Part shown: positions 17,477 through 22,967 of the stretch, in pieces
How the letters are laid out: every line of letters begins with the position of its first letter
Numbering within the stretch: the stretch's first letter is position 1
NCBI GenBank assembly: GCA_965198115.1
Contig: OZ240241.1
Location: 4,096,001-4,160,000 of the forward strand
Reading direction: 5' to 3'
DNA: 64,000 nt
From: Candidatus Latescibacterota bacterium
Lineage (GTDB): Bacteria; Latescibacterota; UBA2968
Made by a program: the position numbers and the translations under genes
The notes under the pieces: model-generated
Database searches by the model: none
The model's input: only the letters and a program-made list of their open reading frames with translations
What the model was told of the DNA's origin: nothing

Positions 17477-17605
17477 GAATCAGTGGATTACCAACTGAAT
17501 CCTGGAGTCGTTTGTATAATCGGGGATGTGTAGAGACCCTGGCACTCGGTTTGGCTATTAATCAGCAATGGCAATTGCTGTTTACTAGTCAAACGGGGAG
17601 AGTAC

Positions 17606-17715
17606 TGTCATCCCGGCGGTGAGCCAGGATCCATTTTGATCTTCGCGAAAGTCAAAAATGGGCCCTCCCTCACATTCGTTCGGGACAAGCTTCTAAGAAG
17701 CGTTCCGGGGTGACA
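17606..17715. repeat. TGTCA...TGACA-terminated palindromic (MITE-like) element
   Basis: TGTCATCCCGG ... CCGGGGTGACA termini with an internal hairpin; same terminal pentamers as 44310-44492. Confidence 0.65.
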
Positions 17716-17745
17716 ATCCTCTACTTCCGAATCATCCCTTTCCTC

Positions 17746-17771
17746 CTCGCTCCCAAGCTCTGCCTGGGAAT
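17746..17771. repeat. REP-like hairpin
   Basis: CTCGCTCCCAAGCTCTGCCTGGGAAT. Confidence 0.5.
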
Positions 17772-17860
17772 TGACCGACGCCGATGCCTTCCTGAATCAC
17801 TCTTTTCTTGTACACCTTCCCGCCCGATGATGGGATACTATCCGTGGAAGGACTTCCAAA

Positions 17861-17892
17861 TCAGTTGTCAGCTTTCAGTCGTCGGTTGTCAG
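17861..17892. repeat. Heptamer tandem array (TCAGTTG-like)
   Basis: TCAGTTG TCAGCTT TCAGTCG TCGGTTG TCAG. Confidence 0.8.
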
Positions 17893-17914
17893 GAAGACAC
17901 CACACACACAAACG

Positions 17915-19726
17915 ATGAACGAATTGGAAACCACATTTAAGTCGGCCCAGAGAGGATGCATCGAGGCTTACGGCACGCTTGTCGAGCGCTACCAGGATAT
18001 GGCCGTGGGATACGCCTACAGCATCCTCAGGGACTTCCACCTGGCGCAGGACGCGGCACAGGAAGCGTTCATCGAGGCTTTTCCAACGTTGGAAAGAGTT
18101 CACTCACTGGCGGCTTTTCCCAGCTGGATGCGGCGGATCGTCTTCAAACACTGCGACCGTCTGACCCGGAAGGATCGGCGATTCACCTTCCTGTCGGCCG
18201 AAGAAGCGTTGGCACTTCCCGCACGGGAGCCGCTCCCCGACCGGGTTCTGGAGGATCGTGAGATGCACAGCCTGCTGAACGATGCGGTTTCCGACCTGCC
18301 GGAGGGGGAGCGCGAAGTCGTCACGATGTATTACATCTCGGACCAATCACAGAATGACATCGCGACATTTCTGGATGTGCCTGTTTCGACGGTGAAGAAC
18401 AGGCTGAGAAGCGCGCGAACTCGAATGAGAGAGAGGCTGCTTGATATGGTTGAGGACAACTTGAAAGCGAATCGGCCGTCGAAAGACGCGGAATTCGTGA
18501 ACGGCGTGCTGAAGATCGTCGCGCCGGTGAAGGAGAAAGACAGTGACGCGATTTACCGGAGACTGGAGGAAAAGGGCCGTGCAGATATGGCGCGCCAGGC
18601 CCGAAATGGGCGTATCGCGGAGAGTCACTTCGACTGGAAGACCTCCCGTGTCGGGATGGTGGACGGGAAGATCGCGACCCACGTCGGCGTGTATGAACTG
18701 AACTTCCAGATCGGAGATGCGGTCGTCCGTGCGGCCGGCATCAACTGGCTGGACGTGAACAAAGAGACAGCAGACGAAGGGAAGCTGCAGGAGACCATCG
18801 GAGCCGCCGTAGAAGCGATGGAAGCGAATGGCTACGACATCGCCGTGACGAGATCGGAGCGACCGGAATGGCTCGCGCCGCACGGGTTCGTCTACGGGAT
18901 GCCCGTTCAACAATGTTACTACGTTAACGTGGAGGATCTGCCGACTGAGCCGCCTGACGTGATACTCGAGCGGGTTCACGCAAACGAGATCGCGAGTCGC
19001 AAGGACCTCGCGGAGATTTACAACCACGATCACAAGGGTCTGACGGGGTGTTCGATTCGTCCTACTTACCACCGCGGCAAGTGCCCGCCACCCGACGACA
19101 AGGACTTTCCCGCCTACATCTTCAAGGATGATCGTGGGAAGGTCGTCGGCTACCTGTATGACGGACCGTTTCGGGACAAAGAGATGTTCACGTTTTCGGA
19201 TGCTGCCGGTGACCCGGAACAGATTCTTCGAGTGCTTGCGCAGAAGGTGAGGGAGTTCGAGATCGATCGTGTACGGTTCATCAAAATGCCCTATCGCAGC
19301 CCGCTGGCGAAGCGGATCAGGCAGGGCGACTACATTCTCGAGGTCAAGAAGGTTGACAATGATGGGCGCAGCGCGTCGCAGATCAGGCTGATCAACCTTC
19401 GCTCTACCCTGGAGAAGATCGCGCCGGTGCTAGGCGGACGGTTGGCTGCGTCGACGTTGTCAGGATGGGAAGGTACGGTTTCGATCGAAGCCGATGGCCA
19501 GGCTGCGTCACTCGCGATCGGAGGAGCGAAGGTCGATGTGTCGGACGCAGTCGATTCCGATCACTCCGTGCGCGGAGGACAGGAGGTCGCGCAGTTGCTG
19601 ATCAGCACCGAGGTTCCGGACGAGGTCTGCGAAGCCGGTGGCATCACCCTCGCAGGGGATGCGGGCAAGCTGATCGAGGTGCTTTTTCCCGAACAACGCG
19701 GCCAGATGCCCAACGAGGATCTGTAG
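17915..19726 (+). CDS. ECF sigma factor fused to an Eis-like GNAT/SCP2 C-terminal region
   Basis: Sigma2 (LVERYQDM..AQDAAQEAF..WMRRIV) and sigma4 (LPEGEREVV..IATFLDVPVSTVKNRLRSAR), then about 410 aa with Eis-like segments (DGKIATHVGV..IGDAVVRAAGI; RLINL..EVLFP). Confidence 0.8.
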   Translation: MNELETTFKSAQRGCIEAYGTLVERYQDMAVGYAYSILRDFHLAQDAAQEAFIEAFPTLERVHSLAAFPSWMRRIVFKHCDRLTRKDRRFTFLSAEEALALPAREPLPDRVLEDREMHSLLNDAVSDLPEGEREVVTMYYISDQSQNDIATFLDVPVSTVKNRLRSARTRMRERLLDMVEDNLKANRPSKDAEFVNGVLKIVAPVKEKDSDAIYRRLEEKGRADMARQARNGRIAESHFDWKTSRVGMVDGKIATHVGVYELNFQIGDAVVRAAGINWLDVNKETADEGKLQETIGAAVEAMEANGYDIAVTRSERPEWLAPHGFVYGMPVQQCYYVNVEDLPTEPPDVILERVHANEIASRKDLAEIYNHDHKGLTGCSIRPTYHRGKCPPPDDKDFPAYIFKDDRGKVVGYLYDGPFRDKEMFTFSDAAGDPEQILRVLAQKVREFEIDRVRFIKMPYRSPLAKRIRQGDYILEVKKVDNDGRSASQIRLINLRSTLEKIAPVLGGRLAASTLSGWEGTVSIEADGQAASLAIGGAKVDVSDAVDSDHSVRGGQEVAQLLISTEVPDEVCEAGGITLAGDAGKLIEVLFPEQRGQMPNEDL

Positions 19727-19756
19727 GCTGATCCGGGATTCGATGGACAGGTTCTG

Positions 19757-19786
19757 GGTAGGGACGCTTCGCGAAGCGTCCCTACC
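19757..19786. repeat. Perfect 30-bp palindrome with GTAG/CTAC motifs (REP-like; possible terminator role)
   Basis: GGTAGGGACGCTTCGCGAAGCGTCCCTACC is its own reverse complement and lies between convergent genes. Confidence 0.85.
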
Positions 19787-19870
19787 TGCGTACTGATAAC
19801 AAAACGAACGGGCGGCCATCTTATTGATGCGCCGCCCTTCTTGTGCCCTGAAGGTGTAAGCCGTTCTCTT

Positions 19871-19895
19871 CTTGGCGTCTTAGTGTTTTTGCGTT
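19871..19895. repeat. 8-mer tandem array
   Basis: CTTGGCGT CTTAGTGT TTTTGCGTT; same family as 16299-16323. Confidence 0.65.
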
Positions 19896-19971
19896 CACCC
19901 TCCCCGTGTTCGTGCATCCCTCGGTCGCCATCGGCTTTCCTCCGACAATGTCTCAGCACACTCGGATTCGG

Positions 19972-20841
19972 CTATGCCATCTTCAACATCTCCGGCGTGA
20001 TCGTGTCTCCGTCGCACGCGCTGACCGCATCCGCTACGACGTCGGCGAGCTCTGCGCAGTTCCGAGGCCAGGCGTACGCTTTGAGATGATCCAGGGCGGC
20101 TTCGCTGAGGGCGGGAGCCGGGCCGTCGCTGTCCTTGGTACGCGACCGGATGAAGTGATTCGCAATTTCGGACAAGTCTTCGAGACGGTCCCTGAGCGTC
20201 GGACTGAGAATCGAGTTTTTCGCGAGCATCTCGTATAAATCCGATCTGAATCGGCCCTGATCGACGGCATCCTGGAGGCTGTGATGACAGATGCCGACAA
20301 TACGAACATCCGATCGCAGGATGGTCGCGCCACCCATCCGTGAGAACCGCCCGTTGACGCAATAGGCGGCCAGCTTCTGCTGGATGTTCGGTGAGAGCCT
20401 GTCGATAGCCTCGATGCAGACCGTGCCCCGCTTTGCCAGTCTGAGCAGACCCGACACCGGCGATGAACGGCCGCCTGCGGGATCCGCCTCGACGCCGAAC
20501 AGTTCCGTTTCGATCGTTGCATCCGTTGCACTCGCATCGAGGAACAGAATAGGCTGGTCGGCACGAGGACCGTTGAAGTGGACGGCCTTCGTGATCAGCA
20601 TTTTACCCGTCCCGGGTTCCCCCTCAACCAGCACGTGATCGTCGATCCTCGCCACTTCCTCGATGCGTCGGAGCAGCGCCTGATTCAGCTCACTCTCACC
20701 CACGATGCTCGTCGTGATTTTGGCTTTCCCGTCACCTGCAGGCGAGGACGACCGGAGAGCATCGAGCATTTCCTCTGCTTCCTCTTCGCTGACCGTTCCG
20801 GCCGCGAGGAGCGATAGAACTTTCCGTTCTGCTGCATCCAT
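19972..20841 (-). CDS. SHOCT-like domain fused to a degenerate sigma54-interaction AAA+ domain (no GAFTGA, no HTH)
   Basis: N-terminus ERKVLSLLAAGTVSEEEAEEMLDAL; Walker A GEPGTGK; ETELFG, GRFRSDLY, LRDRLED and YAWPRN motifs; AAGGAGG RBS. Confidence 0.85.
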   Translation of the reverse strand: MDAAERKVLSLLAAGTVSEEEAEEMLDALRSSSPAGDGKAKITTSIVGESELNQALLRRIEEVARIDDHVLVEGEPGTGKMLITKAVHFNGPRADQPILFLDASATDATIETELFGVEADPAGGRSSPVSGLLRLAKRGTVCIEAIDRLSPNIQQKLAAYCVNGRFSRMGGATILRSDVRIVGICHHSLQDAVDQGRFRSDLYEMLAKNSILSPTLRDRLEDLSEIANHFIRSRTKDSDGPAPALSEAALDHLKAYAWPRNCAELADVVADAVSACDGDTITPEMLKMA

Positions 20842-20864
20842 TGTTACCTCCTTGATCGACGTTA

Positions 20865-21227
20865 TCAGCCGGGTCTCCGAAGTTGAGCGATCGCATCGCG
20901 TGCGGTCAGCTCTCCATCCACAACCGCGTCCAGAATGCTCAGCTGGGACTCGCGTTCGTTCCGAGATGGGTTACCCAACGCCTGGTTCACCTCCTCCAGG
21001 CGTTTTCGAACGGTGGGGTAGGAGATCCCCAGATCCCGCTCGACTTCCCGGATGTTGCCTCGGGCGCCGATGAATGCGAGGATGAACCGCTGCTGCTCGT
21101 CGGAGAGCAGACCGAGCAGAGAGGTTCGAAATTCGCCCTCGATCGTGGCCGAACAATCGTGACACCCGAGTTTGACCGGACGAAGCCGTCCTCCGCAGAT
21201 CGGACAGGCTGTGAGTGAGTGATTCAT
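20865..21227 (-). CDS. DUF2089 family protein (Zn ribbon + HTH + SHOCT-like tail)
   Basis: CPICGG..CHDC and GNIREVERDLGISYPTVRKRL motifs; tail ILDAVVDGELTARDAI; GGGAGGA RBS before ATG 21227. Confidence 0.92.
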   Translation of the reverse strand: MNHSLTACPICGGRLRPVKLGCHDCSATIEGEFRTSLLGLLSDEQQRFILAFIGARGNIREVERDLGISYPTVRKRLEEVNQALGNPSRNERESQLSILDAVVDGELTARDAIAQLRRPG

Positions 21228-21260
21228 GGTCCTCCCCATTCCAGACCCACCGAAGTATTC

Positions 21261-21397: not shown

Positions 21398-22967
21398 CCT
21401 GAATTATGCATAAAAAAGGTAGTCTCCTTGTACAAGTGTTTGTTTTTCCCTACATTAGGGCTGACACATCAAAACAACACTTGGAAGGAACTACCGTGAT
21501 AGAACCTAGTCAGATCCGGTTACCATTCGCAAGCATTTCGGGCAAGGTAGTTGAGGCTGATTTTGCCGGTGGCGCCGTCAGGAGTGACGGTGGAGTTCTG
21601 TTGCTTCGCGCCCTTGAGTCTCAGATGGGATTGATCGCCAGAATGGTAGATGCTTTGCGAGATCGTCGTCACCCAAGCTATATCGATCACACGCTTTTGG
21701 ATCTTGTGAAGCAGCGTGTTTTTCAGATCGCTTGCGGCTATGAAGATGCCGTCGATTGTGATGATTTGCGCCACGATCCGGGCGTCAAGGCTGCCTGCGA
21801 TCGGCTTCCTCTTTCCGGTCCTGATCTCGGGAGCCAATCAACGATGACACGACTTGAGAATGATGTGCGACGCTCGGATTTGTATCGGCTCGCACGGGCT
21901 TTTGTAGACGGGTTCATCGCATCGTATGACCAGGCACCCCCAAGCATCATTCTCGATATCGACGACACGGATGACCCAACGCACGGTGCGCAACAATTTT
22001 CACTCTTCAACGCGTATTACAATGAACACTGCTATATGCCGCTACATATCTATGAAGGCCAAAGCGGCAAGCTCATTACGACGATCTTGAGACCCGGGCA
22101 TCCGACGAACGGTAAACAGGTCGTTTCTATTCTCAAGCGCTTGGTGGAACACCTACGCGGATCTTGGCCAAACGTGGAGATCATCGTTCGCGCAGACTCA
22201 AAGTTCAGCTCACCAGAGATGCACGATTTCTGCGAAGACAACGGTATCTACTACGTTCTGGGCCAGGGCGCCAACTCCAGGCTCAAAGCGGCTGGACAAA
22301 ACCTGATGGACCAAGCGCTACGTCTGAGCGAGCATAAGGAGACGATTCGCTTGTTCTCATCCTTCTCATATCAGGCTGGCACCTACCGGCAGCCTCGCCG
22401 GATCATTCACAAGGCTGAAGTCACAAACGGCGAAGCAAATCCAAGATACCGCGTGACCAATTTACAGAGTAATCGAGACGGCTTTATCTATGATCGTATC
22501 CGATCGAACATCGTGCCACAAGTTTGAAGCCAACCAGTTCCGACTCTTTCTACACAGTGCTGCATACGCCTTGCTTCACGCACTCCGATCACAGGGACTC
22601 AAGGGCACCGCGTGGACCAAACCTCAGGTCAACACGATACAGAACCGTTTCCTCAAAATCGGCGCGAGAGTCATTGAAAGCGCACGAAGAATCCGATTCC
22701 ATTTTCCAACATCGTATCCACTCAAAAACGTCTTGGTGTCAATCATCACCAGGCTCGAAACGAACACGCAGTAACAACGCCGATCTATACCGGGGACAGC
22801 TATGTACACGTCGCAAAACAACACCTGTTCCGGACGAAAATCGTGACTCTTGCGACTCGTAGAGACCGCTTACGGGACCTTGGACATCCGAAGAAGCCGA
22901 GAACAAATCCTGTGCGTGATCACATCACTCCAAAACAACCTAAACTCAAATTCATGCATGATTCAGG
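21398..22967 (+). mobile_element. IS1380 family insertion sequence (defective)
   Basis: Terminal inverted repeats CCTGAATTATGCAT / ATGCATGATTCAGG (1 mismatch); flanks TTAG and CTAG; lower GC than its surroundings. Confidence 0.9.
21496..22774 (+). pseudogene. IS1380 family transposase with internal deletion and frameshift near 22500
   Basis: SDGGVLLL, GYEDAVD, LDIDDTDDPTHGAQQ, VRADS and, in another frame, DRTSCHKFEANQFRL. The RG-x-x-EN-x-IKE segment expected between them is absent. Confidence 0.9.

Follow-up and report, generated by a model that had tools for sequence, protein, structure and literature searches.

The window analysed here is a 64,000-nucleotide stretch of a Candidatus Latescibacterota bacterium genome (contig OZ240241.1). 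The gene under study, P0001, is a single stop-free open reading frame of 603 codons at positions 17915-19726 of the forward strand, preceded by a predicted promoter and a short palindrome. The features of the locus, in window coordinates, are as follows.

17810..17818 (+), predicted -35 box, GTACACCTT, a variant of the clade consensus gtAACCTTt
17831..17840 (+), predicted -10 box, TGGGATACTA (clade consensus TGGGnCTtt), scoring highest within 300 nt upstream
17845..17858 (+), palindrome TGGAAG-GA-CTTCCA close to where transcription is inferred to begin (clade consensus GAAG-NN-CTTC)
17915..19726 (+), whole gene P0001, ECF sigma factor, linker and Eis-fold tail, 603 aa
17978..18178 (+), Sigma-70 region 2, residues 22-88 (PF04542, 35.9 bits, cut-off 24)
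18275..18433 (+), Sigma-70 region 4, residues 121-173 (PF08281, 44.1 bits; PF04545, 39.5 bits)
18473..18496 (+), clade linker RPSKDAEF, residues 187-194, the junction beyond which tails diverge
18506..19723 (+), predicted Eis-fold tail (two GNAT domains and a C-terminal domain), residues 198-603, aligned end-to-end with Eis
18749..18781 (+), degenerate GNAT motif A/CoA P-loop LDVNKETADEG, residues 279-289, net acidic
18872..18874 (+), Leu320, in the sequence-alignment column where standalone homologs have the Tyr matching the Eis general acid
19709..19723 (+), C-terminal PNEDL, in register with Phe402 of Eis (603 aligned to 402)

Pfam searches of P0001 detected sigma regions 2 and 4, both above cut-off, with regions 1 and 3 unmatched, which is the architecture of ECF (group IV) sigma factors, and the TIGR02937 score of 82.3 bits is well above the cut-off of 42.9. 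The original prediction, made from the sequence alone, had named complete sigma2 and sigma4 domains, an RPSKDAEF linker followed by about 410 residues, and no transmembrane segment or adjacent anti-sigma gene. All of this is borne out: 409 residues follow the linker, P0001 contains 0 transmembrane segments (maximum 19-residue hydropathy 0.95), and the adjoining genes encode an amidohydrolase (upstream) and an AAA protein (downstream, opposite strand) rather than an anti-sigma factor. Two linker residues, P188 and F194, are invariant in an alignment of 16 proteins with mixed tails. An artefact in which two genes were joined or a frameshift was missed is ruled out by the stop-free frame, by 18 aligned fused homologs, which provide independent support for the integrity of the fusion, and by gap-free contigs. 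The interval 17658-19900 is covered by one contig in X1 and one in X2 with 0 differences, 0 gaps and no stop or frameshift, an agreement that is not independent, X1 and X2 being one sample and possibly the source of the window. The ECF-Eis fusion is thus confirmed as real and conserved.

The immediate surroundings contain several other elements. Between the amidohydrolase gene and the promoter lies a small repeated element (17549-17720) with nested inverted repeats, where contig depth is raised and loose ends occur. The region 19972-21239 (-), which converges on the sigma gene, carries a DUF2089 gene and then a SHOCT-like plus sigma54-type AAA protein, the latter with no GAFTGA loop and with CIEAID as its Walker B; measured against the canonical motifs, this protein is possibly another disarmed regulator. 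Farther downstream, a DDE_Tnp_1_4 transposase (21406-22862, +) that matches only positions 3-324 of the 435 in the model and is followed by short ORFs looks like a broken insertion sequence.

Conventional sequence searches with the tail gave a sub-threshold GNAT match in Pfam (residues 244-311, E = 0.0013), no match in a PDB sequence search seeded with the single tail sequence, no NCBIfam model for either the tail or the standalone protein P0016, and only generic ECF clusters in the ESM Atlas. Family profiles of the tail matched Eis-family chains (3n7z, E = 5.5e-14; 1e-23 for a later profile), and the same relationship emerged from structure comparison of the AlphaFold model of P0001, which has a mean pLDDT of 85.6, with most of the tail above 90 and the linker region 185-197 below 50. 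Foldseek matched the tail to Eis-family chains with E-values from 3.7e-18 to 1e-12, and VIA superimposed the model on 2ozg with Z = 31.6 (rmsd 3.1, 370 residues aligned) and residues 199-603 on residues 3-402 of the Mycobacterium tuberculosis Eis chain with Z = 28.4; across 23 Eis-family entries Z ranged from 27 to 31.6, with the next family at 16.6. The last residue, 603, pairs with residue 402 of Eis, a register judged from the aligned range and not from side-chain geometry. The Eis-like layout proposed for the tail is thereby confirmed in the predicted structure as a complete Eis fold (GNAT-GNAT-SCP2-like). P0001 shares this whole fold and the register of the C-terminus with the Eis enzymes of M. 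tuberculosis, Anabaena (2ozg) and Bacillus anthracis (3n7z), from which it differs in being sigma-fused, only 12-15% identical, and devoid of the P-loop and the Tyr general acid.

According to the accessible text of PMC8556138, Eis is a hexamer and requires a P-loop R/Q-x-x-G that binds the CoA pyrophosphate, Tyr126 as general acid, and the C-terminal carboxylate, that of Phe402, which sits in the active site as a remote base. Motif A of P0001 was found at residues 279-289 exactly as the original prediction had read it, with ADEG at the P-loop positions 286-289. To place these changes in the family, we counted them in two sets of homologs. In the first, where a strict P-loop was one with no acidic x and one standalone fragment was dropped, the strict P-loop occurred in 0 of 36 fused and 28 of 31 standalone proteins, and the Tyr in 9 of 36 and 27 of 31, respectively; R-x-x-G persisted as RDEG in 9 of the 36 fused proteins. 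The second set consisted of 50%-identity representatives with 15 fused and 3 standalone rows added (two fused rows being fragments and one lacking the loop, and five rows of unclear status kept apart); the P-loop was intact in 0/31 fused versus 93/110 standalone proteins, the loop was net positive in 1/31 versus 108/110, and the catalytic Tyr was present in 8/31 versus 104/110, counts that in both sets describe kin and not independent events because the AU test (p = 0.072) does not reject that the main fused group arose once. Among the fused copies of the second set, the loop varies in both length and sequence.

The decay is selective, with motif A/B residues lost in the fused copies, and it tracks the fusion. 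Twelve of the 21 positions that are conserved in the 110 standalone proteins and lost in 27 fused ones fall within residues 279-328, that is, 50 of the 409 tail residues, a few of the 21 varying in the nearest standalones too. Other motifs (GRIxxSHxDW, TGxxxRPTY and the C-terminal FPxQxPQMxN) are 80-100% conserved in the fused rows, and R233, N277, K389 and N600 are among the residues most conserved in the fused copies. In six pairs of relatives, which exclude the window gene for want of a close enough partner, dN/dS was 0.17-0.26 for the tail and 0.15-0.36 for the sigma part, so the tails of the relatives are under purifying selection. Judging from its residues, the tail of P0001 is likely a dead enzyme domain without acetyltransferase activity; counting against a dead tail are the fused copies, noted above, that retain RDEG or the Tyr. 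One fused protein, P0144, retains R-G-H and the Tyr and lies near intact standalones in the trees, possibly as an early stage of decay. A second, very divergent group of Eis-like tails (P0067, P0074, P0082, P0126 and L091) is attached to the same sigma core and has VP(D/S)P in place of the P-loop.

Searches with the tail identified 36 homologs, 18 fused and 15 standalone ones of which were aligned. Among 60 related genomes, the full fusion was present in eight, all from one genus; in named records, Eis-tailed copies occur in Ca. Latescibacterota (the best matches), Chloroflexota, Nitrospinota, Gammaproteobacteria and Verrucomicrobiota, among others, and the tail is full length across several phyla. 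The trees, in which intact standalones are nested among the fused proteins, need 3-4 gains or losses of the fusion but, given the result of the AU test, we do not claim multiple independent fusions for the main group. No neighbour gene is conserved in 15 Eis-fused loci. The genome G000 also encodes an intact standalone Eis homolog (L002), 23% identical and located elsewhere in the genome. In genus g7 (L027-L034), the fused gene is found among ANT(2'')-like, APH, GNAT, methyltransferase and standalone Eis genes, with the ANT(2'')-like gene directly downstream in 7 of 8 loci; a general link with aminoglycoside islands was rejected, this context being confined to the one genus and absent in G000 and the other Eis-fused loci. 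A match on a Paenibacillus plasmid (H1) proved to be a distant ECF factor with a different tail.

A wider picture, absent from the original prediction, is that of a constant sigma core, linker and promoter with a swapped tail. A search with the sigma core yielded 842 long homologs (the best 120 of the 842 listed), and grouping of the tails gave 18 clusters for 124 proteins and 31 for 200 once genome loci were added, a single-linkage count with some redundancy. The strict linker pattern RPSxDxxF is present in 141 of the 200 clade proteins, and G000 encodes three further linker-bearing paralogs, two with ankyrin and one with an APH-like tail. Besides Eis, the tails include ankyrin, TPR and LRR repeats, the PheRS core, FliG, FliM, histidine kinase, citrate synthase, APH, the Lon N-domain, BFN, T2SS E/F, SecA, SAICAR synthetase (PurC), the Rho RNA-binding domain, nucleotidyltransferase and a RimL-type GNAT. 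Catalytic residues were audited in four of these types: the phosphorylated His of the histidine kinase tails is replaced by Lys in 4/4, HxD is missing in both APH-like tails, motifs 2 and 3 of the PheRS tails are mostly kept with a variable FPF loop, and the catalytic His/His/Asp is kept in both full-length citrate synthase copies. The intact citrate synthase set contradicts the notion that all tails are dead and, together with the PheRS motifs, argues against a dead-enzyme rule for the clade. Collectively, these observations show a multi-phylum clade that shares sigma core, linker and upstream motif while the tail is swapped, and the tails likely act as built-in control modules.

Several members of the clade deserve separate mention. 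P0285, with 1395 residues, matches PF00211 (cyclase), PF00931 (NB-ARC) and AAA and TPR families in Pfam, which suggests a sigma factor fused to a STAND-type protein. The loci L092, L106, L084, L144 and L128 encode clade cores fused to SecA, SAICAR synthetase, the Rho RNA-binding domain, and nucleotidyltransferase plus UvrA. The APH/kinase-like tail of the paralog L003 (G000:C1:4716140-4717687, -) lacks HxD, and the end of this gene seems to run on in another frame (ORF 4715967-4716371), so that it may be frameshifted. Finally, a tail-less ECF of the same larger branch (G000:C1:3228629-3229303, +), with promoter-like sites at 3228612 and 3228488 though outside the training set, is a candidate constitutive or differently regulated member.

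The upstream motif was recovered without a seed: a Gibbs search of 22 upstream regions (28 minus 6 near-duplicates) reached a score of 426, compared to 299-311 for three shuffled sets. The model built from 18 Gibbs sites exceeded 15 bits in 28 of 69 held-out loci (11 of 80 having been removed as possibly overlapping or too short) versus 2 of 1380 shuffles. Retraining on 56 of the 69 sites produced the consensus gtAACCTTt/TGGGnCTtt with one spacing shared by 54 of them, a result that is not fully independent, the spacing having been limited to three values and the sites first found by a model that contained the window. The two boxes of the window are a weak match on their own (8.4 bits, equalled by 4 of 100 shuffles); boxes and palindrome together score 18.8 bits, a value reached by 0 of 100 shuffles. 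The GTACAC..TGGGA variant is also found upstream of the Eis-tailed relatives L038, L042, L045 and L046. When 52 sites were selected by their left arm alone, the base opposite the outer G of the palindrome was C in 29 of them and T in 15, and the base opposite A was T in 41; such pairing is compatible with a weak 5' hairpin or with an operator. A consensus scan revealed no sigma-70-type promoter. Because ECF factors often autoregulate, as stated in the accessible part of PMC7776599, we infer that the motif is the sigma factor's own promoter. The fragment 17790-17850 originally proposed for a reporter assay includes both predicted boxes and cuts the palindrome (17845-17858).

Searches of G000 for a regulon yielded none: the top four matches of the three-part motif were the model's own training genes, the two-box scan above 13 bits gave 157 matches against about 286 expected and showed no enrichment over shuffled sequence, the palindrome was not enriched outside ORFs (3 of 18 exact copies), and pattern searches for the window's box variant gave no credible target. 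A strong orphan -10 box with palindrome (28.1 bits) is present at G000:C1:74624 (-) with no downstream ORF, and the adjoining sequence on the opposite strand appears to resemble a transposase.

None of the described ECF groups covered here matched the architecture of P0001, and a literature search, with most subscription papers outside its coverage, found neither an ECF-Eis fusion nor this clade described. In the 2021 ECF classification, the words 'acetyltransferase' and 'GNAT' are absent from the main text (PMC7826278); in the accessible part of its supplement they occur six and five times, respectively, in passages that, as far as covered, concern neighbouring genes, and none of the covered passages on C-terminal extensions describes an Eis-like one (PMC7826278). 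The closest described group is ECF264, which, in the accessible description, is restricted to Firmicutes and has a DUF1835 tail of about 350 aa, no anti-sigma factor and the promoter GTAACCTT (-35)/GGCACATT (-10) (PMC7826278; Casas-Pastor et al. 2021). As far as that description goes, ECF264 and the P0001 clade share the long soluble tail and the lack of an anti-sigma factor, and the ECF264 promoter is close to the clade consensus, of which the window site is a weakly scoring variant. The tail of ECF264, however, is fixed as DUF1835, for which Pfam found no match in P0001 (nor was one found in G000, where controls went unmatched too). In the sigma-core tree, nine sigma-DUF1835 proteins, designated ECF264-like by tail and promoter and not by group HMM, constitute a separate branch (SH 95) whose sister is the 42-row P0001 clade (SH 84), the two being joined by a branch at SH-aLRT 99. 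They are 32-39% identical to the P0001 core, compared to 43-58% for clade members, and they carry the ECF264 promoter without the RPSxDxxF linker and palindrome of the P0001 clade. By tail and sigma-core tree, P0001 is not a member of ECF264, and the ECF264-like proteins are its sister group. A second sigma-DUF1835 family (L179, L189, L203, L228 and others) is placed outside the ECF264-like branch, whose promoter it does not have.

Fused soluble domains in place of an anti-sigma factor are likewise found in ECF41/56/294/295 (SnoaL-like, also an enzyme-type fold) and ECF42 (TPR), but these tails are 120-200 aa long, fixed per group and accompanied by other promoters, whereas the tail of P0001 is a three-domain unit of 409 aa and one of 31 clusters. 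P0001 has neither the SnoaL-like tail of 120-150 aa of ECF41/56/205/294/295, residues 198-603 being filled by the Eis fold, nor the TPR tail of about 200 aa of ECF42 (no TPR match in Pfam), nor the tail transmembrane helices of ECF57, ECF48, ECF52, ECF53 and ECF263. In mode, with a fused soluble regulator and no anti-sigma factor, it resembles ECF41 and ECF264 and is a member of neither. An enzyme-type fold that senses for a sigma factor is also known from RsgI of Clostridium thermocellum, described in the accessible sources as a separate membrane anti-sigma factor with an extracellular sensor and proteolysis, unlike the single cytoplasmic chain of P0001. The RsgI6 sensor includes a GH10 domain. 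Planctomycetes ECF factors, including ECF57, also combine one core with many unrelated tails, which the accessible text of PMC7671368 (Pinto et al.) explains by fortuitous capture of downstream genes; compared by description, ECF57 tails have about two transmembrane helices, whereas the P0001 tail is soluble, cross-phylum, under purifying selection and selectively inactivated.

Modes of action listed for ECF tails in the accessible text of PMC8999054 are conformational, protein-interaction and proteolytic. We consider it probable (roughly 0.6), by analogy with ECF41, that the likely dead Eis domain controls its sigma factor in cis by binding a ligand and acting through the conserved linker. 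Truncation data for ECF41, in the accessible part of PMC3426412, show that activity depends on the proximal extension and that the distal part is inhibitory. By the same logic, the tail of P0001 would bind a small molecule or peptide in the retained acceptor pocket, the proximal linker would support activity, and the distal domain would damp the sigma factor until the ligand shifts it, upon which RNA polymerase would transcribe the P0001 gene and a few other targets. The ligand might be whatever acceptor substrate the ancestral Eis subfamily used; aminoglycosides are not favoured, since Arg, Lys and Asn, and not a strongly acidic set, are what the fused copies have kept. In favour of control in cis are the Eis fold, the selective loss of P-loop and Tyr, selection on the tail, the lack of a transmembrane segment and of a conserved neighbour, the other dead tails and the upstream motif; against it, the 31 tail clusters are unrelated, which makes it difficult to envisage a specific interface between sigma factor and tail. 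Thus, of the original idea that an enzyme fold was reused as a ligand-sensing cis anti-sigma domain, the reuse of the fold without its CoA-binding and catalytic features, under selection and with no conserved anti-sigma partner, holds, and the ligand and the inhibition are proposals by analogy.

Other readings of the same observations have to be weighed. The tail might mimic a working cellular protein and sense a protein rather than a metabolite: it would join the intact Eis oligomer, or catch its attackers or binders, and so release the sigma factor. The resemblance of many tails to housekeeping machines (SecA, Rho, PheRS, PurC, citrate synthase, FliG, FliM, Lon, T2SS E/F, histidine kinase), the ankyrin, TPR and LRR interaction repeats in many others, the intact standalone Eis in G000 and the hexameric state reported for Eis in the accessible text of PMC8556138 are all in line with such mimicry. 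We nevertheless regard this reading as doubtful, given that the standalone Eis of G000 is only 23% identical and encoded elsewhere, no partner gene is conserved, and conservation concentrates on motifs around the catalytic region rather than on a demonstrated oligomer surface. In an unlikely scenario, a mobile minimal sigma gene with promoter and linker was inserted in frame before an Eis gene, and the tail is ballast or a proteolysis handle that senses nothing. Capture of this kind has been proposed for Planctomycetes (accessible text of PMC7671368), and the huge tail variety, junctions located exactly at domain starts, the ORF-less promoter copy at 74624 and the tail-less relative at 3228629 of G000 would suit it; yet the Eis tail is full length in several phyla with dN/dS of about 0.2, and neutral decay would not focus loss on the CoA site and leave other motifs near invariant. 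Quite improbable, finally, is a tail that is still an acyltransferase, with weak CoA use or a different acyl donor, perhaps modifying the sigma factor or RNA polymerase: the C-terminal carboxylate is in register, some fused copies retain RDEG or the Tyr, and P0144 retains R-G-H plus Tyr, but P0001 itself lacks the Arg, Thr and Tyr, the loop varies among the fused copies, and its acidity would be expected to repel CoA, ACP and tRNA donors.

Apart from the preferred reading of a ligand-controlled sigma factor, we tentatively entertain a broader possibility for the clade as a whole, that it is a plug-and-play chassis of core, linker and self-promoter into which the cell's own core machines are slotted, often disarmed. 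If this were true, each tail copy would keep RNA polymerase directly informed about its working original, be it the state, the substrate or the attackers of that protein, and the clade would be a bacterial counterpart of integrated decoy domains.

ECF factors with fused tails are already known, each described group having essentially one tail type. Here a single core with a predicted promoter accommodates no fewer than 31 tail clusters, among them several enzymes that have been selectively disarmed. Poorly cultured phyla, in which the clade is common, are under-sampled by the ECF classification, which is based mostly on reference genomes. The finding is of value chiefly for this clade of swappable tails and the promoter predicted for it, which make it possible to ask in the laboratory how an enzyme fold that is dead can turn into a sensor and in what way a short linker couples arbitrary domains to transcription; if this coupling is general, the clade would offer a ready modular scaffold for biosensors.
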